Below, piece by piece: positions 11,792-34,766 of a DNA stretch of 64,000 bases. The notes under the pieces are model-generated. The model was not told the origin of the DNA. It worked only from the letters and a program-made list of their open reading frames with translations, and did not search any database. The DNA comes from Chitinophagales bacterium (GTDB lineage Bacteria; Bacteroidota; Bacteroidia; Chitinophagales; JADIYW01), in NCBI GenBank assembly GCA_035515235.1, contig DATJBS010000031.1, positions 53,523 through 117,522 of the forward strand, given 5' to 3'. The translations under genes and the position numbers were made by a program. Position 1 is the first letter of the stretch. Every line of letters starts with the position of its first letter.

Positions 11792-11850
11792 ATCTCGAAC
11801 TCAACTAGAACCTTTCTAGCATTTTACTTACAACTTTTTCTATTTCGAAC

Positions 11851-11890
11851 TTTTCCATCCATCTACAAACTTTTTCATCCATCTACAAAC
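11851..11890. repeat. 20-bp tandem duplication (ttttYcatccatctacaaac x2)
   Basis: Read directly; one mismatch between the two units. Confidence 0.8.
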
Positions 11891-11949
11891 TTTGGAAAAG
11901 TTAGACTCGTTTGTAAAGTTGAATTCTATTCTCATTCTACAAAAAAGAT

Positions 11950-12150
11950 GGTATGCCGTCGCTGAGCTTGTCGAAGTGTGGTCTGTCGTATATAGTCTTT
12001 CTACAAATTCGACGGTCTATTCACTGTCGTCTTTCTACATATACAGTGGTCTATGGCCTGTCGACCGTCGTCTATCAATCGTGGACTTTCTACAAATTCG
12101 ACTTCTATCGTCTATTGTCTTCGGTCTATCGTCTTCGGTCTGTCGTCTCC
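11950..12150. repeat. degenerate gtct-rich repeat field (ggtctatcgtct / gtctgtcgtct / ctttctacaaattcgac units)
   Basis: Units were read directly. The same word family occurs at 10049-10079. ORFs 11892..12182 and 11953..12261 look like artefacts of this repeat. Confidence 0.7.
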
Positions 12151-15628: not shown

Positions 15629-15795
15629 TGAATTTTGTTAAAGATGAAATTAAGCAATTTTTAATAGCTATAAATTATATTTCAGCTTATATGCAATTCA
15701 TCAAAGTCTAATTTTGAGAATTTACTTGAACATTGAATTCAAATATTTTGTAAAAATAGAACTTAAGAGGAACGTTTTTTTTCAAAAGGTGTCGT

Positions 15796-17067
15796 TTACT
15801 TAGTATATATTTTATGCCAAACATCAGTATAGCCCATCATAACTACTCCTAAAGCATGAGCTTTGGAGAATAAGAAGGGTTGACTGGAGATTAATTCAGA
15901 CATCACTTGCTGAATGATAGTATCTTGAATTCCTCTTGACTTGCATTGCTCTATAAATTGCATAGTATGTTTTTGAGGGTCATCCTCTAAAAGATATCTA
16001 TACATCATATCTGCAAAGTCATAGCCTAAACCTGACATTTTTACAATAATTTCTAGAAACTGCTCTTTATATACGATATATCCATATGTGGATTCTAAAG
16101 GCTCGTATAGGCTTTCGTGTAGAAATCTCGCTTCTTTTTCCTTTAAATGTATGGATTTGATGCCATCTACATACTCCATTAGTGAAGGTCTGCTTAATGC
16201 ATATGCTAGCGCTAAACTTTCTAAAGTATTGGTATCAAATTCAAACATGATTTCTCTCATATTATCCTTATGAAAAGGAAATATTTCGGAACTATTCTCT
16301 GATAGAATATATTCAAATACTTTAGGATCATCCCATGTTTCAGGATAAATCTGGACTTTGTTTTTAGAGTAGATGTCTTGAAGGTGATCTAATTGCTTTA
16401 AGCCAAAAATATCAAATTTGAAATACCCTAGACTCTGTAAATATTTCACAGGAAAGTCTACTACTAAATTGTCAGAATTGCACTCAATTTCTAAAGTAGG
16501 AGCAGTTGGTTCAAGTGCTTTGTCAGAAATAACTACACCACTTCCTGCTGGCGAAAAGTACATAGTAGCATCGGATGTATCGCTTTCGTCGTCATTACTT
16601 CCAGCTAAAACACCAATATGTGCTTCTCCAAATAAATCTTTAAGGTATTGAATCACTCGCTCTCTATTGTCAAATGAAACATCTAATGAGAAAGAAGGTA
16701 AAAATCCTGCTCTAGGATTGAAGAATCTCTGATATGGAAGCCCTCTTACTAAAGCATTCACTTGAGTAAGACCTAAACATTTTGCTACCAAGCTGGAGTT
16801 GATTACTCCTCTTCCTGGTCCTACGCAAATTTGATTGGATTTGCAAAAATCAATAATGGATTTCCACAGCAAAAAATAGTCTTTTAAACCAGATTTTTCA
16901 ATGTGGTTCAATTCTTCATTAATTCTGTCTAAAATGGAATCGTCGATGTGACTGATGTGAATTTTTCCTCCTTCGTAAACCATGCTTTTGAATTCTGAGA
17001 ATTCAATATTTGCATACTTATAGTCGATATCTGAAACTATAGAAGGCAATTCTGGAAAGTTGCTCAT
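15796..17067 (-). CDS. stand-alone DnaE (DNA polymerase III alpha) core-like protein, probably catalytically inactive
   Basis: Colinear motifs were found by eye: [62 protein letters not shown] and [10 protein letters not shown]. There are no PHP, beta-clamp or OB regions. Confidence 0.6.
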   Translation of the reverse strand: [423 protein letters not shown]

Positions 17068-17265
17068 GGCTACAAAAGTATAGAAAATAATATTTGCATG
17101 GGTAAAATAATAGTTAAAAATATATTAATCAAGACAAAAACTGATAGTTATATAATGCGAAATAGTTGAATATTTAAAATATAAACACATCATTGTCATG
17201 TTTTTAAACGAAATGATGGAATCAATTATTCTTTATATTATATTCGAGAACCTAATAAAAAAAAC

Positions 17266-18057
17266 ATGTCATTTAAAGAAAAGTATGGCCAATGGGCACT
17301 GATAACTGGAGCCTCAAGTGGCTTAGGGGTTGAGTTTGCTGACCAATTAGCTAAAAAAGGTTTGAATCTTATATTAGTCGCAAGGAGAGAAGAGTTGATG
17401 AAAGAATTAGCTGAGAAGATTCAAAGTCAATATGCTGTAGAGGTTAAAATTTTAGCTATAGATTTGTCTAAAGAAGGATTTTATGCTGAATTGTCAGAGA
17501 AAACTGCTGATTTAGATATTGGATTGATTGTCAATAATGCAGGAATGAATAGCGAAGGACATTTCTATAGAGCTGATTTGGCTAGAAATATTCAAATGAT
17601 TCGTTTAAATATGGAAGCTCCTTTTATAATTGCTTATGAAATGGGCAAGAAGTTTATAGAGAAAGGAAGAGGTGGTATAATTTTCACTGCATCCTCGAGC
17701 TCTTTTCAAGCAACTCCATATTTATCTCATTATGGCGCTACAAAAGCATATTTACTTTCATTGGCAGAGAGCATGAATTATGAATTTAAAGACAAAGGAG
17801 TAGATGTAATAGCATTATGTCCAGGCATGACTGAGTCTGAAATGACAAAATCTATGAAAGGCAGTCCATTAGTAATGAAAGCTGCTCCTGTGGTTAAATC
17901 AGCAATCGATAATCTAGGAAAACAAGCTTATATCGTTACAGGTCTTGGAAATAAAATTCAAGCTTTTATGACTCAAAGAGTTTTAGGGAGAGATTTGTCT
18001 AGAAATATTGCTGGTTCTTTAATGAAAAGAGTGCTTCCTGGAGCAAGAAAGAAGTAA
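17266..18057 (+). CDS. SDR-family oxidoreductase
   Basis: ITGASSGLG cofactor motif, NNAG, and YGATKAY catalytic YxxxK. Confidence 0.85.
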   Translation: MSFKEKYGQWALITGASSGLGVEFADQLAKKGLNLILVARREELMKELAEKIQSQYAVEVKILAIDLSKEGFYAELSEKTADLDIGLIVNNAGMNSEGHFYRADLARNIQMIRLNMEAPFIIAYEMGKKFIEKGRGGIIFTASSSSFQATPYLSHYGATKAYLLSLAESMNYEFKDKGVDVIALCPGMTESEMTKSMKGSPLVMKAAPVVKSAIDNLGKQAYIVTGLGNKIQAFMTQRVLGRDLSRNIAGSLMKRVLPGARKK

Positions 18058-27475: not shown

Positions 27476-27563
27476 GGAGAAATGGCAGAGCGGTTTAATG
27501 CGGCAGTCTTGAAAACTGTTGACTGTTACAGGTCCGGGGGTTCGAATCCCTCTTTCTCCGCCA
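27476..27563 (+). tRNA. tRNA-Ser (anticodon UGA), CCA-encoded
   Basis: Acceptor stem ggagaaa/tttctcc, anticodon loop cTTGAaa, a long variable arm (tgactgttacaggtc), the T-arm ggGGTTCGAATCCcc context, and a terminal gCCA. Confidence 0.9.
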
Positions 27564-27566
27564 AAA

Positions 27567-27601
27567 AGTCCCTAGACATTAACGTTTAGGGACTTTTTTT
27601 A
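27567..27601 (+). terminator. intrinsic terminator after tRNA-Ser
   Basis: agtcccta/tagggact stem followed by T7. Confidence 0.75.
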
Positions 27602-27726
27602 TTTAGAATACTATTCAGATTTTTTCATTAATAAAAGATTAATTCATATTATAAGTTATAAATTAGCTAACATGAATGAAAATTATATATTTTCAGTTTC
27701 AGAAGTCGTAACGAATTAACTATACA

Positions 27727-30700
27727 ATGAATTTCAACGAAGACTCCCGAGTTAAAATACCATCTATATTACATTTGATTCAGTTAGGGTATACCTATCT
27801 TTCTTTGAAGGATATTATTTGGGATGAAAATACTAATATTTTCTCTTCGATTTTTAAGGAACAACTCCAAAAAATTAATATAGGTTTATCTGATAAGGAT
27901 ATTCAAAACACATATGATGATATTTCAATCTCATTAGAGAACGAAGATCTAGGTAGAGCATTTTATAAAAAGTTGATAGATCAATCTGGAGTAAAATTAA
28001 TTGACTTTGAGAATTTTGATAACAACTCTTTTCATGTGGTTACAGAGCTGCCATATAAAAAAGATGATGAAAGTTTCAGACCAGATATTATTCTGTTAAT
28101 CAACGGAATGCCATTAGTTTTTATTGAAGTCAAAAAACCTAATAATAGAAATGGTGTAAGAGATGAGCATACTAGAATGCAAAGACGTTTTCAGAACAAG
28201 AAGTTTCGAAAGTTCATCAACTTGACCCAGCTCATGGTGTTTTCTAATAACATGGAGTATAGTGAAGAAGATACTCAAATGTTAGAAGGAGCATTTTATA
28301 GTACTACAAACTACAAAAAACCAATATTCAACTATTTCAGAGAGGAAGAAAACTTTGACCTTTCAAAGATTTTAAAGCCAATTTCAGAAGAGGAAGAAAA
28401 TTTTGTATTACAAGACACCAATCTCTTAAGTATTAAAAATTCTCAAGAGTATTTATCAAATAAAAATCCAACTAAAGCTACAAATTCGATTTCTACATCT
28501 TTATTTCAGAGAGACCGCTTAAAATTCATTTTACGTTACGCTTTTGCATATGTGGAGGAAGAGCAAGGTTTGGAAAAGCATGTCATGCGATATCCTCAGA
28601 TATTTGCAACGAAGGCAATAGAAACTAAATTAGAAAGTGGAATCAAAAAAGGTATTATTTGGCATACTCAAGGTTCTGGAAAAACTGCTTTAGCTTATTT
28701 TAATGTAAAACATCTCACGCATTACTATCAGAGAAAAAATATTATCCCAAAATTTTACTTTATAGTAGATCGCTTGGATTTATTAATTCAAGCTGCTAAG
28801 GAGTTTACAGCTCGAGGATTGTTAGTTCACAAAATAGATTCTAGGGAAGACTTTAGTAGAGATATTAAGTCCACTCAAGTGATTCATAATGATTCCGGTC
28901 TAGCTGAAATAACGGTGGTAAATATTCAAAAGTTTAAAGATGATCCTGATGTAATAAAAAACAACGATTACAACTTAAGTGTTCAGCGTGTATTTTTTCT
29001 AGATGAAGTACATAGAAGTTATAATCCTAAAGGAAGTTTTTTAGCTAATTTAGAATTGGCAGATAAGAATTCTATAAAAATTGGCTTAACAGGTACTCCG
29101 TTACTGGGGTCAGAATATAATTCTAAAACAATTTTTGGTGATTATATCCATAAATATTACTACAATCTTTCTATTAAAGATGGTTATACTTTAAGACTTA
29201 TTAGAGAAGAAATTGAAACTAATTACAAGTTAGCATTACAAGAAGCTCTTGAAAATATTAAAGTTTTACAAGGGAATATTGATAAAAAGAAACTCTATGC
29301 TGATGACCGTTTTGTAGAGCCTATGCTAGATTATATTGTAAAAGATATGGAGCAAGCTAGAATCTCGATGAATGATAATACTATTGGAGGAATGGTAGTT
29401 TGTGATTCGTCGGAACAAGCAAAAATGATGTTTGAAATTTTCAAAGATAATTATGCAATTCAATCTATGCCTTATTATGCTCAAGCAGCTGAAGAACAAG
29501 CAAGCTATGGCGAAAAGAAAAGAGGATCTAGTAAAGTAAAGACAGCACAGGTAATCTTACACGACGTAGGTACTCCGAAAGAAAGAAAAGATTGGGTGTC
29601 TGACTTTAAAGCTGGAAATATTGATTTGCTATTTGTATATAATATGTTGTTAACTGGTTTTGATGCCAAGCGATTGAAAAAACTGTATATCGGTAGGCAA
29701 ATTAAAGCTCATAATTTATTACAAACGCTTACTCGTGTAAATCGAACTTATAACTCACACAGATATGGTTATGTAGTCGATTTTGCTGATATTCAAAAGG
29801 AATTTGACAGAACCAATCAAGATTATTTTAACGAATTGCAAAGTGAGCTAGGAGATGAGATAGAACACTATTCTAAATTATTTAAATCTCCAGAAGAAAT
29901 ACAAGAAGAGATTGAAGAAATAAAGGACATTCTTTTTAGATACAATACTAAAAATGCGACAGTCTTTGGAGATCAAATTTCAGAAATAAACGACCTGAAA
30001 GAAATACGACTAATCGCAAAAGCTTTAAACAACTCTAAAGAACTGTATAACCTCATTCGTCTGTCTGGTAATTTTGAATTATTAGAGAAATTAGATTTTA
30101 GAAAACTATCTATTCTATCTAGATTAACTAATGACAGACTTGCACTTATTAATACTAGAATTGCATTAGAAAATAATGTAAATACAGATAGTATTTTAAA
30201 TACAGCTTTAGAAGATGTGATTTTTGCTTTCACAAAAGTGAAAGAAGAAGAAATGGTTTTGGCGGATGAGCTAAAAGATGTTTTGGGTAAAACTCGTGAA
30301 ATATTAGCAGGCAATTTTGACCAAAGAGATCCAATATTCATTTCGCTTAAAGAAGAATTAGAACGCTTATTTAAAAAGAAGAATCTAACCGAAGTGACTA
30401 AGGAAGAAATGGAAGCTAATATTAAAGCTTTAGATGCCATTTACGATAAAGCAAAAAAACTTGAACGGGAAAACGAATTGCTGAAAGCTAAATACGATTA
30501 TGACGCCAAATATGCACGAATTCATAAGCGATTAATGGAAAAAAATCCATTGACAGAAAGTGAACGCAAGCTATTTGAAGCTTTAAAAGGTTTGAAAACT
30601 GCAGTAGATAAAGAAATCATGCAAAACTCGAAGTTGTTAGAAAATGAGAGTTATGTAGAAAAAATGATGATGAGATTAGTTGTGAATCAATTTAAAAATG

Positions 30701-30795
30701 AACAAAAAATTGACATCAATACTACTGATGTAAGACGTATTAATAGTTTGATAGTAAAAGAATATATGAACGAATACAATGGCTATGTTGCTTAA
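27727..30795 (+). CDS. hsdR: Type I restriction enzyme R subunit
   Basis: N-terminal nuclease region (RPDIILLINGMPLVFIEVKKP, a PD..ExK motif). SF2 helicase motifs are HTQGSGKT, FLDEVHRS and LTGTP, and the length is 1022 aa. Confidence 0.9.
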   Translation: MNFNEDSRVKIPSILHLIQLGYTYLSLKDIIWDENTNIFSSIFKEQLQKINIGLSDKDIQNTYDDISISLENEDLGRAFYKKLIDQSGVKLIDFENFDNNSFHVVTELPYKKDDESFRPDIILLINGMPLVFIEVKKPNNRNGVRDEHTRMQRRFQNKKFRKFINLTQLMVFSNNMEYSEEDTQMLEGAFYSTTNYKKPIFNYFREEENFDLSKILKPISEEEENFVLQDTNLLSIKNSQEYLSNKNPTKATNSISTSLFQRDRLKFILRYAFAYVEEEQGLEKHVMRYPQIFATKAIETKLESGIKKGIIWHTQGSGKTALAYFNVKHLTHYYQRKNIIPKFYFIVDRLDLLIQAAKEFTARGLLVHKIDSREDFSRDIKSTQVIHNDSGLAEITVVNIQKFKDDPDVIKNNDYNLSVQRVFFLDEVHRSYNPKGSFLANLELADKNSIKIGLTGTPLLGSEYNSKTIFGDYIHKYYYNLSIKDGYTLRLIREEIETNYKLALQEALENIKVLQGNIDKKKLYADDRFVEPMLDYIVKDMEQARISMNDNTIGGMVVCDSSEQAKMMFEIFKDNYAIQSMPYYAQAAEEQASYGEKKRGSSKVKTAQVILHDVGTPKERKDWVSDFKAGNIDLLFVYNMLLTGFDAKRLKKLYIGRQIKAHNLLQTLTRVNRTYNSHRYGYVVDFADIQKEFDRTNQDYFNELQSELGDEIEHYSKLFKSPEEIQEEIEEIKDILFRYNTKNATVFGDQISEINDLKEIRLIAKALNNSKELYNLIRLSGNFELLEKLDFRKLSILSRLTNDRLALINTRIALENNVNTDSILNTALEDVIFAFTKVKEEEMVLADELKDVLGKTREILAGNFDQRDPIFISLKEELERLFKKKNLTEVTKEEMEANIKALDAIYDKAKKLERENELLKAKYDYDAKYARIHKRLMEKNPLTESERKLFEALKGLKTAVDKEIMQNSKLLENESYVEKMMMRLVVNQFKNEQKIDINTTDVRRINSLIVKEYMNEYNGYVA

Positions 30796-30845
30796 TGGGA
30801 ACTGATAAAGCAACTATCACAAAACAACAGAAGTTATAAAGTAAA

Positions 30846-31823
30846 ATGAAAGAACAAAACCAAATTGAAATATATAAATCTGATGATGGAGTAACCCAGC
30901 TAAAGGTTAATCTTCAAGATGAAACTGTTTGGTTAAATAGAAATCAACTTGCAGAATTATTTGATAGAGATGTAAAAACTATAGGTAAACATTTAACTAA
31001 TGTTTTTAAAGAAGGCGAATTAAGAAAAGAAGCAACTGTCGCAAAATATGCGACAGTTCAAAAAGAAGGAGATAGAGAAGTTACTAGAGATGTAGATCAT
31101 TATAATTTAGACGCTATTATATCAGTAGGTTATAGAGTTAAATCTCAAAGAGGAACACAATTTAGAATATGGGCAAATAAAGTATTAAAAGACTATTTAG
31201 TACAAGGTTATGCTATCAACCAAAAACGTTTAGAGCAAAAAGAACAAGAAGTAAAAATATTAAAAAGTGGTATTCAAATTTTAAGTAGAGCCATTGAAGA
31301 AAAAACTCAGGACAATCAATGGTTAGAAGTTTTTGCTAAAGGCTTAAGTTTGTTAGATGATTATGACCATGAGAGATTAGATGCAAAAGGTTTAACTACA
31401 AGAAAGGTCTATTATCCTAGTTTAGAAGATTATCAAGAATTAATAAATCAAATGTTGATTGAGTTCGATTCTGAAATTTTCGGAAAAGAAAAAGATAAAA
31501 GTTTTCAAAGTTCTATTGCTCAAATTGAAAAAGGATTTGATGAAAAGGATTTTTACCCAACTTTAGAAGAAAAAGCAACTATGCTTTTATATTTTGTGGT
31601 GAAAAACCATTCGTTTGTAGATGGAAATAAAAGAATAGCAGCAGCTTGTTTCCTTAAGTTTTTACAACAAAACAACATGCTTTTTAATAGTCTACAAGAA
31701 CCAATAATTAGTAACGATACATTAGCAAGTTTGACGCTTTTTATAGCCTCAAGCAAACCAGAAGAAATGCAAACCGTAACGCGATTAGTAATTAGCGTAT
31801 TAAACAGAAACAACAAAAATTAA
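30846..31823 (+). CDS. RhuM-like N-terminal domain fused to a Fic/Doc-family domain (Doc-type motif HSFVDGNKR)
   Basis: N-terminus DGVTQLKVNLQDETVWLNRNQLAELFDRDVKTIGKHLTNVF...ISVGYRVKSQRGTQFRIWANKVLKDYL is RhuM-like. The motif cat tcg ttt gta gat gga aat aaa aga lies at 31608-31634. Confidence 0.75.
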   Translation: MKEQNQIEIYKSDDGVTQLKVNLQDETVWLNRNQLAELFDRDVKTIGKHLTNVFKEGELRKEATVAKYATVQKEGDREVTRDVDHYNLDAIISVGYRVKSQRGTQFRIWANKVLKDYLVQGYAINQKRLEQKEQEVKILKSGIQILSRAIEEKTQDNQWLEVFAKGLSLLDDYDHERLDAKGLTTRKVYYPSLEDYQELINQMLIEFDSEIFGKEKDKSFQSSIAQIEKGFDEKDFYPTLEEKATMLLYFVVKNHSFVDGNKRIAAACFLKFLQQNNMLFNSLQEPIISNDTLASLTLFIASSKPEEMQTVTRLVISVLNRNNKN

Positions 31824-31842
31824 TGTAAAGGAATTCTAAATA

Positions 31843-33468
31843 ATGACAAGTACAGCACAATTTGAAACTCAAACCAAAGCACTGATAGACGATCTCAAAA
31901 GTGTCTGTGCTAATTACGGCTTGGGAAATGACGGGAACGAGTTTAAGATAATCACTCAAGTATTTTTATATAAATTCCTAAATGATAAATACGTTTATGA
32001 ATTAAAACAACTAGAACCAGATTTAGCAAAAGCAGAAAATTTTGATGAAGCACTTCTGAGCTATTCCGACGACGATTTGGAAATGCTAACCATGCAAATC
32101 AGTGAAAACACCGCTTATATTGCTCCCAAAAACTTACTATCTCGTTTATTCGAGCAACAAAACAAATCTAATTTTGCAGATATTTTTGATGAAACCTTAG
32201 TCAGTGTAGCCAAAGACAATATCGATATTTTCTCTGTGCTCACGCAAGGAGGCGAAAAAGTTGTTTTATTTGAAAACCTAAGCAAATACGTCACCGATAA
32301 TAAAGATGCATTTTGTAAAGCTTTAGTGAATAAGCTCGTAGGTTTTAGCTTTGAGCAAATATTTACACAGAAGTTTGATTTTTTTGCCACCATTTTTGAA
32401 TATTTAATCAAAGATTATAATACCAACTCAGGCGGTAAATATGCAGAGTATTTTACACCTCACGCCGTAGCTAAAATTATGGCTGCTTGTTTGGTAACGA
32501 GTGATGATGTGAATAATGTAACCTGCTATGATCCAAGTGCGGGATCCGGAACTTTATTGATGAACCTTGCACATGCTATCGGAGAAGATAAGTGTACGAT
32601 TTACTCACAAGATATTTCTCAAAAATCTTCTTCTTTATTGCGTTTAAACCTGATTTTAAACAATCTCGTACATTCTATACAAAACATCATACAAGGCAAT
32701 ACTATCTTAAATCCATATCACAAACAAGAAGATGGACAGCTAGAAAAGTTTGATTATATCGTATCAAATCCACCGTTTAAGCTAGATTTTTCTGATTACA
32801 GTGCAGATTTAGATTCTAAGGCGAATAAAGACCGCTTTTTTGCAGGAATACCTAATGTGCCGAAAGCCAAGAAAGATTCCATGGCGATTTACTTGCTGTT
32901 TATTCAGCATATCATGTTCAGCTTGACAGACAAGGGGAAAGCGGCTATCGTAGTGCCTACAGGATTTATCACCGCACAATCGGGTATCGATAAATCTATT
33001 AGAGAGAAATTAGTAGAACATAAAATGCTTGCAGGCGTAGTCAGTATGCCTTCTAATATATTTGCTACTACAGGAACGAATGTCAGCATTTTGTTTTTGG
33101 ATAAAACCAATAAGAAAGACGTGGTCTTGGTAGATGCTTCTAATTTGGGCACCAAAGTAAAAGACGGTAAAAATCAAAAAACGGTATTGAGTGCAGATGA
33201 AGAACAACAAATAATTGATGTCTTCAATGCTAAAACAGCCCAAGAGGATTTCTCTGTGGTGGTGACTTATGAGGAACTCAAAGCGAAAAATTACAGCCTA
33301 AGTGCAGGACAGTATTTTGACGTAAAAATCGAATATGTAGATATTACACCTGAAGAGTTTACAGAGAAAATGAAAGCTTTTGAAAGTAATTTAGAAAATC
33401 TTTTTGCAGAGTCTAAGAGTTTAGAAAATGAAATTCAAGAAAATTTGAAAAGTTTGAGGTATGTCTGA
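31843..33468 (+). CDS. hsdM: Type I R-M N6-adenine DNA methyltransferase M subunit
   Basis: DPSAGSGTLL is the SAM motif I and IVSNPPFKL is the NPPF catalytic motif IV. It overlaps hsdS by 8 nt (ATGTCTGA). Confidence 0.9.
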   Translation: MTSTAQFETQTKALIDDLKSVCANYGLGNDGNEFKIITQVFLYKFLNDKYVYELKQLEPDLAKAENFDEALLSYSDDDLEMLTMQISENTAYIAPKNLLSRLFEQQNKSNFADIFDETLVSVAKDNIDIFSVLTQGGEKVVLFENLSKYVTDNKDAFCKALVNKLVGFSFEQIFTQKFDFFATIFEYLIKDYNTNSGGKYAEYFTPHAVAKIMAACLVTSDDVNNVTCYDPSAGSGTLLMNLAHAIGEDKCTIYSQDISQKSSSLLRLNLILNNLVHSIQNIIQGNTILNPYHKQEDGQLEKFDYIVSNPPFKLDFSDYSADLDSKANKDRFFAGIPNVPKAKKDSMAIYLLFIQHIMFSLTDKGKAAIVVPTGFITAQSGIDKSIREKLVEHKMLAGVVSMPSNIFATTGTNVSILFLDKTNKKDVVLVDASNLGTKVKDGKNQKTVLSADEEQQIIDVFNAKTAQEDFSVVVTYEELKAKNYSLSAGQYFDVKIEYVDITPEEFTEKMKAFESNLENLFAESKSLENEIQENLKSLRYV

Positions 33469-34766
33469 ATTCATTAATATTGAAATTGGTGACTTAGGTC
33501 TTACCATAACTGGAAAAACACCTTCATCAAAGTTTCCTCAAGATTTTGGTAAAAAATATATGTTTATAACGCCAAGTGATGATTTTGATAATAAAACGAT
33601 ATTTCAAACGAACAGATATTTATCTGAAATAGGTCTTAAAAAATTAAAAAACAAAATACTCCCCTCGAAAAGTGTTCTTGTTTCATGTATAGGCTCAGCA
33701 ATGGGAAAAATTACAATGAATAATAGCACAGCTATTACAAATCAACAGATAAATTCGATTGTTGTTAATTCTGAATATTATGATGCAGATTATATTTATT
33801 ATCAATTAAAAAATAATTATAAATTATTAAGGACAGCTGCATTAGGAAGTACTGCGTTGCCAATGTTAAATAAAACTGAATTTGATAGATTAAAATTAAC
33901 CATACACAAAAACCTTCAAACCCAAAAACAAATCGCCAAAGTTCTTTCTGATTTAGATGCTAAAATAGAAGTCAATAATAAAATCAACCAAGAGCTAGAA
34001 TCGATGGCAAAAACGTTGTATGATTATTGGTTTGTGCAGTTTGATTTACCCTTCGATTTTGTTCAAAATAAACCAGATATCAATGGTCAACCTTATAAAT
34101 CCTCTGGCGGTAAAATGGTTTATAATGAGGAATTGAAACGAGAGATTCCTGAGGGTTGGAATTGCGGAACAATATTAGATTGCGCAGATCTATTTGGAGG
34201 AGGAACTCCAAAAAAAGAAATAAATGCATATTGGAATGGTAAAATACCATTTTTTACTCCAACAGATATAGAAAATAACGTTTTCTGTCTTGAGACAATT
34301 CTATATACTAATAAATTAGGAATAAGTAAGAGATAAAGGAACTATTTTAATAACAGCAAGAGGAACCGTTGGTAAAATTAATATTACAGGAAAGCCAATG
34401 GCTATGAACCAATCTTGTTATGCATTAAAACCAAAGAATGAATTTAGTTCAGAGTTTATATACTTTCATACAGATCAAATTGTAAAATTTTTAAAAGCTA
34501 AATCTAGTGGTTCTATATTTAAAGCAATAGTTACAAATGATTTTAAATTTACTCCAACTGTTATTCCTTATGTTCAAATAGTAAAGTTATATACTCAAAA
34601 CACTTTTGCAAATTTTGAAAAAATTTTAAATAATAAGAATCAAAACCAAAAACTCGTTGAACTCCGCGATTGGTTATTGCCGATGTTAATGAATGGTCAA
34701 GTAACTATCAAAGAAGCAGAAGAGCAAATCAGAATCGCAGCTGAGCCGAGAGCATCTTATGGATAA
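33461..34766 (+). pseudogene. hsdS: Type I R-M specificity subunit, interrupted by a +1 frame change near 34326-34334
   Basis: The first frame ends ...TNKLGISKR-TAA at 34334-34336. The next frame, open from 34326, reads VRDKGTILITARGTVGKINITGKPMAMNQSCYAL, the conserved TRD2 core. The tracked ORFs 33461..34336 and 34398..34766 are two pieces of one gene. Confidence 0.8.

Follow-up and report, generated by a model that had tools for sequence, protein, structure and literature searches.

C-family DNA polymerases are the essential replicases of bacteria, and surveys of the family (PMC3919608, PMC12926913) recognise the groups DnaE1, DnaE2, DnaE3 and PolC only. The 2026 survey terms the PHP domain 'universally present' (PMC12926913), and both surveys filtered out, before analysis, sequences that were truncated or fragments that lacked an intact active site. 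Here we analysed a 423-residue protein encoded in a 64,000-nucleotide stretch of DNA from a Chitinophagales bacterium (GenBank assembly GCA_035515235.1, contig DATJBS010000031.1, positions 53,523 to 117,522), which we refer to as the window. The protein belongs to a small set of orthologs, family 1, that is very probably, judging from its residues, a minimal and catalytically dead C-family core of a kind not described for family C. No mini or dead group of this type is described in the two surveys, and the literature on PHP-less, truncated, minimal or inactive C-family proteins yielded only full-size phage 'DnaE-like' polymerases and general surveys.

Inactive homologs have been documented for the Y, X and B families of polymerases, and we found none described for the C family. 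ImuB, a Y-family member of the ImuA-ImuB-DnaE2 mutasome, is a polymerase-fold protein that has no catalytic carboxylates left, is under selection and serves as a non-catalytic adaptor (PMC12926913). The analogy is one of logic only: ImuB has the Y fold rather than the C fold and, unlike the window protein, a clamp-binding motif and conserved operon partners. Dead B-family cores persist as structural or binding modules in the C-terminal half of Pol epsilon and in archaeal PolBs that have been inactivated (PMC2669801). Family X offers a precedent in prokaryotic PolX proteins that have no polymerase activity but keep the PHP exonuclease (PMC9226535). These B- and X-family modules sit in larger proteins or keep another active domain, whereas the window protein is a stand-alone core. 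Within family C, the DnaE2 (ImuC) proteins of Bacteroidetes, the same phylum, have a reduced PHP domain and thumb (Timinskas 2014), but they are about 1000 residues long and keep the active site and the C-terminal domains. The window protein has in common with the DnaE1-type DNA polymerase III alpha subunit (Pol III alpha; E. coli DnaE and Taq, structures 2HNH, 2HPI and 3E0D) the Pol-beta-like palm and index-finger fold and the motifs GPGRG, KFD-x-x-GL, RP, TYG-x-x-x-Y-x-EQ and F-x-KSHA. It differs in being one third of the size, in lacking the PHP domain, the thumb and all C-terminal domains, and in its substituted pocket residues.

Homology and domain anatomy of the core

The window protein is a true member of the C-family homologous superfamily, with homology far beyond chance, because it exceeds the gathering scores of both Pfam domains of the core and its predicted structure matches solved Pol III alpha structures. 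PF07733, the Pol III alpha palm, was matched at 3.2e-33 (115.9 bits against a gathering cut-off of 23.9), and PF17657, the finger, at 1.5e-18 over residues 225-378 (67.2 bits against a cut-off of 22). Among proteins of solved structure, phmmer matched the Pol III alphas from Thermus aquaticus (Taq), E. coli and M. tuberculosis with E-values from 1.7e-37 to 9e-26, Taq at 1.7e-37 and E. coli at 1.9e-31. An AlphaFold2 model built on the family alignment reached a mean predicted local distance difference test score (pLDDT) of 81 and a predicted template modelling score (pTM) of 0.83. When this model was compared with Pol III alpha structures by Foldseek, the query-normalised template modelling (TM) scores were 0.74-0.79; PolC came second, and no further significant structures were found. 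A sequence identical to the window protein (P0001) carries the database label 'hypothetical protein [Chitinophagales bacterium]'.

Identity to canonical DnaE is only 20-25%, and the protein falls outside the established groups. The NCBIfam DnaE models match it at 1e-53 to 1e-56, with scores five to seven times under their equivalog cut-offs. The highest score came from NF005298 (189 bits against a cut-off of 1260), TIGR00594 gave 183 bits against 434, and none of the whole-protein cut-offs for DnaE1, DnaE3 or PolC equivalogs was reached. The best matches were to DnaE1-type models rather than to DnaE2 or PolC; the DnaE2 model NF004225 stayed below the DnaE1 models, at 95 bits where its cut-off is 939. 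An earlier note on this DNA, made from the sequence and a comparison with E. coli DnaE, had proposed a stand-alone 423-residue homolog of the DnaE core here and had named a Foldseek comparison of an AlphaFold model with Pol III alpha as a check. The Pfam, phmmer and Foldseek results bear this proposal out, and all five motif pairs that it quoted were recovered in HMMER alignments with the real E. coli DnaE.

HMMER aligned the protein in two blocks. Residues 43-154 correspond to Taq 381-492 and E. coli 323-430, and residues 173-420 to Taq 574-832 and E. coli 510-776, with the end reaching E. coli 776-779 or Taq 832-835. The thumb of about 80 residues (E. coli 431-509, Taq 493-573) is unmatched, and the linker that stands in its place is left unplaced by the model (pLDDT below 50 at residues 156-175), in which helices continue to residues 402-421. 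The protein begins at about E. coli position 300 and has no PHP domain, because this start lies about 30 residues into the palm; PF02811 (PHP) found no match in it, and no PHP remnant is present in the window. PF14579 and PF01336 likewise found no match in the protein. The rest of the fingers, the helix-hairpin-helix ((HhH)2)/beta-clamp-binding region, the OB fold and the tau-binding domain are all absent, and the protein stops at about E. coli 779, inside the fingers by the E. coli definition. It therefore consists of the palm and part of the fingers only, one third of the size of DnaE. The earlier description of a palm/thumb/fingers core holds for the palm and the fingers and not for the thumb, in place of which stand residues 155-174. 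The lack of a PHP domain, of the beta-clamp and tau regions and of the OB fold, and the stop inside the fingers, had been read correctly, as the profiles and alignment ends show.

The N-terminus carries a feature of its own. Family 1 proteins begin with the motif M-x-x-[FL]-P-x-[LIV]-P, in which M1, P5 and P8 are invariant, and residues 1-20 are modelled with low confidence (pLDDT 48-62) and are probably disordered. This peptide is not found in family 2, a larger set of related proteins described below, where the hhalign alignment starts by pairing family 1 residue 21 with family 2 residue 3. The FPxLP peptide is a candidate short linear motif through which a partner might bind. It does not fit what we take to be the known clamp-binding consensus.

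Pocket residues and selection in family 1

Pocket residues were taken from the 2.4-2.7 Å E. coli ternary complex (bioRxiv 10.64898/2026.06.29.735100) and compared across 17 proteins of family 1, 33 of family 2 and 45 full-length DnaEs. The numbering was checked against the real E. coli dnaE gene sequence, and profile and pairwise alignments were concordant. The residues of the E. coli motif PDFDVDF are numbered P400-D401-F402-D403-V404-D405-F406; D555 belongs to VKFDFLGL, whereas QFD contains D542. In the window protein, D401 corresponds to S125, D403 to S127, D405 to D129 and D555 to D219. The three catalytic aspartates thus read S, S and D: the DxD pair is gone and the third Asp is kept. The earlier note had given S, D and P; it was right that two of the three are lost, and a proper alignment gives back the third Asp alone. 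Across family 1, the D401 column holds Ser and Ala seven times each and Thr, Val and Pro once each, and the D403 column holds Ser 15 times and Thr twice. Both aspartates are missing in all 17 members, and the loss therefore predates the divergence of the family to 46% identity. The equivalent of D405, which is non-catalytic, is Asp in 17 of 17.

The substitutions extend well beyond this pair. In the ternary complex, metal B is coordinated by D401 and D403 along with the beta and gamma phosphates, S364 makes hydrogen bonds to the phosphates, and K714 and K715 form the front wall of the pocket (bioRxiv 10.64898/2026.06.29.735100). In the Gly-Ser motif of the window protein, R86 (R362 in E. coli) and G87 (G363) are retained, S364 has become Val, and G365-A366 reads Ile-Asn. 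Position 364 is Val, Thr, Ile or Pro across family 1; the five of 17 members with Ser or Thr all have Thr. R396 is replaced by Ala (Ser, Thr, His, Ala or Asn across the family) and R709 by Tyr (Y356; Tyr, Cys, Gln or Asn across the family), and the neighbouring R710 is retained as R357. The finger loop is reversed in charge, with K714 changed to Glu in 15 and K715 to Asp in 16 of the 17 members, against Lys in 43 of 45 full-length DnaEs.

The other side of the pocket is held constant. K553 touches the last primer phosphate, R362 the O3' of the sugar, and R639-P640 the templating nucleotide; H760 is the steric gate, and the R362A and K553A mutants are dead (bioRxiv 10.64898/2026.06.29.735100). 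K553 and D555 are conserved in 17 of 17 family 1 members, as are R362, G363, R390, D405, R639, P640, R710 and the steric-gate H760. The roof residue F756 is Phe in 16 and Tyr in one, Y754 is replaced by Phe, and N757 by Ser. The substituted set thus comprises S364, G365-A366, R396, D401, D403, R709, K714, K715 and N757; these positions are conserved in 43-45 of the 45 full-length DnaEs, with the exception of G365 (34/45) and A366 (33/45), where the residues are small.

Judged by these alignments, the half of the site that holds the metal and the triphosphate has been dismantled, even charge-reversed, and the primer, template and sugar half is frozen. The complete Asp triad, the triphosphate-holding residues other than R390 and R710, the PHP domain, the thumb and complete C-terminal parts, all belonging to a functional polymerase, are lacking. 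The window protein is thus very probably a non-catalytic 'pseudo-polymerase', and we infer strongly that polymerase activity has been lost. It would neither bind Mg-deoxynucleoside triphosphate (dNTP) nor carry out nucleotidyl transfer, owing to the dismantled metal and triphosphate half. The earlier call of inactivation is strengthened by the loss of the Gly-Ser serine, R396 and R709 and by the reversal of the finger lysines.

A search of 5.8 billion proteins recovered 17 family 1 clusters of 421-446 residues and 46-100% identity. All 17 members are intact and contain both Pfam domains, and about 90 alignment columns are invariant. The ratio of nonsynonymous to synonymous substitution rates (dN/dS) is 0.067 between the window gene and P0002 and 0.055-0.071 between P0014 and P0015, the two closest pairs, which alone are informative as synonymous sites are saturated in more distant ones. 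When 1.84 billion cluster representatives were searched exhaustively with a profile, one full-length family 1 representative scored 774 bits and the next full-length protein 244 bits; family 1 is sharply delimited because of this drop. A 123-residue fragment at 216 bits matches the C-terminal 120 profile positions only and is probably also family 1. The family is rare, with one locus among 185,579 species-representative genomes, it was not found in viral contigs, and its only taxonomic label is the 'Chitinophagales bacterium' of the window's own protein. Purifying selection has maintained family 1 in a small, uncultured bacterial clade. The view that the gene is retained rather than a fresh pseudogene thus holds, with intact orthologs down to 46% identity.

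Compact relatives and genomic surroundings

The exhaustive profile search also returned two single-stretch matches of about 425 residues, and using one of them as a new query revealed family 2. This family comprises more than 80 further clusters of 420-432 residues with the same two Pfam domains, found on metagenomic contigs (for example P0179, P0173 and P0166). Two members carry source labels, 'Bacteroidota bacterium' and 'Ignavibacteria bacterium', both from Bacteroidota. We define the mini-DnaE architecture of this family as a length of about 420-445 residues, a start near E. coli 300, a short linker that replaces the thumb and an end near E. coli 780. The window protein has this same architecture: hhalign aligned families 1 and 2 with a probability of 100% over 399 columns (residues 21-423 with 3-414), and the two are colinear, with the same start, a near-equal linker and the same end. 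Their identity is only about 27%, and neighbour-joining trees unite them with bootstrap values of 97-100%. The earlier note had recognised no described family; none is indeed described in PMC3919608 or PMC12926913, but the protein is no isolated oddity, being colinear with this larger family.

Family 2 differs from family 1 in its catalytic residues and in its surroundings. It retains D401 and D403 in 31 of 33 proteins each, D555 in all 33, Ser or Thr at position 364 in 28 and R709 in 27, and its members keep the GRGS, DIDID and KFD motifs. Family 1 lacks this intact set, with D401 and D403 each present in 0 of 17. By its residues, family 2 is therefore probably a minimal nucleotidyltransferase that is active. 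Defence and mobile-element genes surround the four family 2 loci that have long flanks, without exception (L009:10001-11272, L010:10001-11278, L046:10001-11266 and L047:10001-11278), whereas family 1, which has the FPxLP extension and has lost the catalytic residues, lies among housekeeping genes. The family 2 neighbours include methylases, restriction-modification (RM) genes, AIPR, McrBC, WYL-WCX regulators and PD-(D/E)XK nucleases, as well as a reverse transcriptase of DRT type accompanied by DUF1848 and a helicase, a GH25 phage lysozyme and an excisionase-like HTH_17 protein. Family 2 may consist of active minimal polymerases that belong to islands or defence systems. No PADLOC-DB 2.0 model matches mini-DnaE. 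Family 2 patterns recovered only distant relatives, all of full size, the BFVD viral structures contain full-size or two-gene DnaEs only, and PHROGs gave partial matches to full-length phage DnaE families only. A phage origin of family 1 was considered and rejected, as the family is missing from viral contigs and the viral relatives are full-size or two-gene proteins.

Other compact forms were observed outside the window. P0248, P0250, P0253, P0254 and P0258 (508-519 residues) form a further group of short DnaE-like proteins. P0258, with PSFLFDF for the DxD strand and EIYFMGL where KFD would stand, has apparently lost its three catalytic aspartates, and the group may be a second, independent inactivated C-family lineage. 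P0032 (606 residues) lacks the PHP domain and thumb, has an intact DIDLD and carries a degenerate duplicate of the first palm segment ahead of it. P0284 (443 residues) is a third mini form, of about 443 residues, with intact catalytic residues, and P0033 and P0098 (670-725 residues) retain the PHP domain but not the thumb, and their end coincides with that of the mini forms.

The family 1 gene is a stand-alone unit in core-genome surroundings (Table 1). A divergently transcribed short-chain dehydrogenase (SDR) gene lies on one side in the window, and a polysaccharide-flippase-like gene and an AsnB-like gene lie on the other, followed further out by SodA, YchF and a ParC/GyrA-like protein. The guanine-plus-cytosine (GC) content around the gene is like that of the rest of the window. 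A tblastn search with eight full-length DnaEs against the whole window gave significant matches inside this open reading frame (ORF) only; PHP or C-terminal parts in other frames, which in the earlier note would have spoken for a decayed copy, are thus absent from the window. A canonical full-length dnaE is expected elsewhere in the host genome, because at least one full-length Pol III alpha is present in every bacterial genome surveyed (PMC3919608). A 1022-residue ORF in the window was considered as a possible dnaE and rejected, as it encodes a type I restriction R subunit.

The earlier note had also called for a survey of orthologs and their neighbourhood; the orthologs are there, under selection, and the neighbourhood is not conserved. 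The eight family 1 loci with readable flanks, the window and seven others, have differing neighbours, with housekeeping genes such as SDR, HisRS, diaminopimelate (DAP) epimerase and galactokinase beside them. When the ORFs within 6 kb were clustered by all-versus-all BLASTP across 29 loci of both families, no partner recurred in more than three loci. Across the window and the remaining family 1 loci whose flanks could be read, neither imuA, imuB and dnaE2 nor PolY/RecA neighbours were found. Local synteny exists only within subclades of family 1: SDR is common to the window and L001 (8911-9708), and L007:6865-9900 and L045:7757-9978 share DUF5723 and an unannotated, divergent gene of 254-284 residues without a Pfam match. 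At L007, a RES-Xre toxin-antitoxin pair and a fragment of IS66 also lie near the gene.

No upstream regulatory motif common to family 1 was found beyond the closest pair. A sigma-70 promoter scan gave nothing above shuffled expectation, the sigma-70 model being inappropriate for Bacteroidota. The sequence TACTTTTG occurs on the minus strand at window positions 17073-17080, 5 nt upstream of the ATG, and fits what we take to be the Bacteroidota -7 promoter consensus, TAnnTTTG. If it serves as a promoter, the mRNA would be nearly leaderless. Two further observations concern the window at large. A type I RM island (27476-34336) directly follows a tRNA-Ser gene (27476-27563) and looks like a tRNA-adjacent insertion; it lies about 10 kb from the mini-DnaE gene and has no link to it. 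Short tandem repeats with periods of 20, 34 and 14 nt, at 11848-12148 between the YchF-like GTPase gene and sodA, give rise to several spurious overlapping plus-strand ORFs.

Table 1. Features of the window, with the parts of the mini-DnaE gene listed from its N-terminal to its C-terminal end
Feature	Positions	Strand	Basis or remark
Minimal DnaE-like protein (family 1), complete ORF	15796-17067	minus	423 residues and stop; ORF list, PF07733, PF17657
N-terminal peptide MSNFPELP	17044-17067	minus	candidate short linear interaction motif; family alignment
Palm, part 1 (residues 29-154; E. coli ~305-430)	16606-16983	minus	HMMER alignments
Degenerate Gly-Ser nucleotide-binding motif	16792-16821	minus	sequence, column counts
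Former catalytic strand P124-S125-F126-S127-L128-D129 (E. coli P400-D401-F402-D403-V404-D405)	16681-16698	minus	profile alignment
Acidic linker of ~20 residues (155-174) in place of thumb	16546-16605	minus	gap between HMMER blocks
Palm, part 2 (residues 175-223), including K217-F218-D219	16399-16545	minus	alignments, sequence
K217-F218-D219 (E. coli K553-F554-D555)	16411-16419	minus	third catalytic Asp and primer-phosphate Lys retained
C-terminal segment with PF17657 finger match, ending at E. coli ~779	15805-16398	minus	HMMER, model
Charge-reversed finger loop L360-E361-D362-D363, replacing E. coli G-K714-K715-K	15979-15990	minus	sequence, column counts
Helix-loop-helix pocket F398-L-F400-S401-K-A-H404 (E. 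coli Y754, F756, N757, H760)	15856-15876	minus	alignment
Downstream intergenic region, 167 bp, before polysaccharide-flippase-like gene	15629-15795		no C-terminal-domain remnant
Intergenic region, 198 bp, AT-rich, between gene and divergent SDR gene	17068-17265		no DnaE-related coding remnant
SDR gene, divergently transcribed	17266-18057	plus	ORF annotation
HsdR, type I RM island	27727-30795		
RhuM/Fic-domain protein, type I RM island	30846-31823		
HsdM, type I RM island	31843-33468		
HsdS, type I RM island	33461-34336		

Possible function and competing explanations

We consider the window protein best explained as a selected, non-catalytic binding module, probably an offshoot of the mini-DnaE class, and give this explanation as a whole a probability of roughly 0.55. 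The core would bind the 3' end or junction of a primer-template, or a ligand resembling a nucleoside, without elongating it, which is suggested because the primer-end, template and sugar contacts are retained beside a destroyed metal and triphosphate site. In E. coli numbering, the retained half of the pocket would offer contacts to the primer 3' end (K553, D555 and R362), to the template (R639-P640) and to the sugar and base (H760, F756 and Y754, the last changed to Phe). The protein may act through a partner recruited by the family-specific FPxLP peptide, and family 1 would most likely have arisen as a chromosomal, inactivated offshoot of the family 2 class. A repurposed non-catalytic module had already been suggested in the earlier note; the idea is supported in substance, though its residue map was wrong and the thumb loss and the wider dismantling of the pocket had been missed. 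Overall, the earlier observation is partly confirmed and the earlier interpretation partly supported.

Several points weigh against a binding module derived from family 2. The retained R362, K553, D555 and steric-gate His would also be expected if some nucleotide chemistry survived. Tight DNA binding by the protein alone is disfavoured, because family 1 is strongly acidic (isoelectric point about 5.0, mean net charge -19) and because the thumb and (HhH)2, which hold duplex DNA in Pol III alpha, are both missing. Charge is nevertheless a weak argument against DNA binding, since the E. coli core region also carries -16 against the -19 of family 1. The proposed partner finds no genomic support in a conserved gene nearby. 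As to descent, the p-distance between families 1 and 2 is 0.74, against 0.73 to full-length DnaEs, the tree grouping joins two long branches, and the shared derived columns are few (six, versus 10-11 lineage-specific ones), so that the two families could have been truncated independently.

A more elaborate form of the binding-module explanation can be put forward tentatively. In this form, the protein would be the first dead C-family paralog to be described, exapted from the mini-DnaE class into the core genome of an uncultured bacterial lineage, with a Glu-Asp-Asp triphosphate mimic and a role as a 3'-end or nucleoside sensor that signals through FPxLP. Speculatively, the E361-D362-D363 loop (window numbering) might act as a built-in triphosphate mimic by docking on R86, R114, K217 and R357; this docking would leave the pocket locked and convert the core to a sensor of 3' ends or nucleosides. 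We regard this combination as doubtful, and as clearly less probable than the binding module in its general form.

Among the rival explanations, the likeliest, though still improbable, is a rewired enzyme that performs nucleotidyl or phosphoryl transfer with D129, D219 and the new acidic residues D204, E361, D362 and D363, possibly on a substrate other than dNTP and primer. The essential non-carboxylate residues R362, K553 and H760 are invariant together with the third Asp, D204 and E361-D363 are new invariant or near-invariant acidic residues, and the sister family 2 seems to be competent for catalysis. D129, which follows S127 by two residues on the same strand, should face the same side; D405, however, is present in all canonical DnaEs, and according to Pritchard and McHenry in 1999 it reportedly does not rescue D401 or D403 mutants. 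Moreover, the metal-B ligands, the Gly-Ser serine, R396, R709 and the finger lysines, found in 43-45 of 45 real polymerases, are gone, and position 401 varies among Ser, Ala, Thr, Val and Pro in family 1, unlike a catalytic site. A lower likelihood is assigned to a role in an anti-phage or mobile-element system, in analogy to family 2, as its component, sensor or decoy, for example a polymerase mimic that titrates a phage anti-replicase factor. Inactive enzyme mimics follow a common decoy logic, and the idea gains from the RM, McrBC, AIPR, DRT, WYL, PD-(D/E)XK and prophage-like genes around all four family 2 loci with long flanks and from the RES-Xre pair and IS66 fragment near L007. The window and the other family 1 loci, however, are flanked by housekeeping genes in sequence of ordinary local GC, PADLOC gave no match, family 1 is absent from viral contigs, and neither family has a conserved partner gene.

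A piece of a split polymerase, with the PHP domain, thumb and C-terminal parts encoded elsewhere and assembled in trans as for intein-split cyanobacterial DnaE or the two-gene DnaEs of phages, is much less probable than either of these. Split DnaE genes do exist in cyanobacteria (Timinskas 2014), and the adjacent phage proteins of about 470 and about 570-650 residues called 'DNA polymerase III alpha' (PA5 and P1201, from Foldseek) can be read as split DnaEs. The piece at issue, however, itself lacks the catalytic DxD pair and the Gly-Ser serine, its thumb loss is an internal deletion rather than a gene boundary, and the family 1 loci examined contain no adjacent DnaE-related ORF. Last in likelihood, and effectively refuted, comes a decaying dnaE/dnaE2 fragment or an assembly or annotation artefact. 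Heavy divergence (20-25% identity to canonical DnaE) and truncation at both ends would fit a pseudogene, but the gene does not behave as one because dN/dS is 0.055-0.07, 17 orthologs are intact and no remnants flank it; the orthologs are also of constant length and from independent assemblies, with a confident AlphaFold model and the invariant columns described above.

Family 1 is rare and known from metagenome assemblies alone. Nevertheless, a selected non-catalytic module of this kind bears on how the C family is understood. A conserved core of one third of the usual size shows how far the C-family fold can shrink, and the mini core exists both as an apparently active form among defence and mobile genes and as a dead, selected form in the core genome. 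Real families such as these can escape surveys from which 'fragments without an intact active site' are excluded. Family 2 offers a natural minimal C-family catalytic core, and family 1 a probable pseudoenzyme in which evolution appears to have separated the metal and triphosphate half of the site from the primer and template half.

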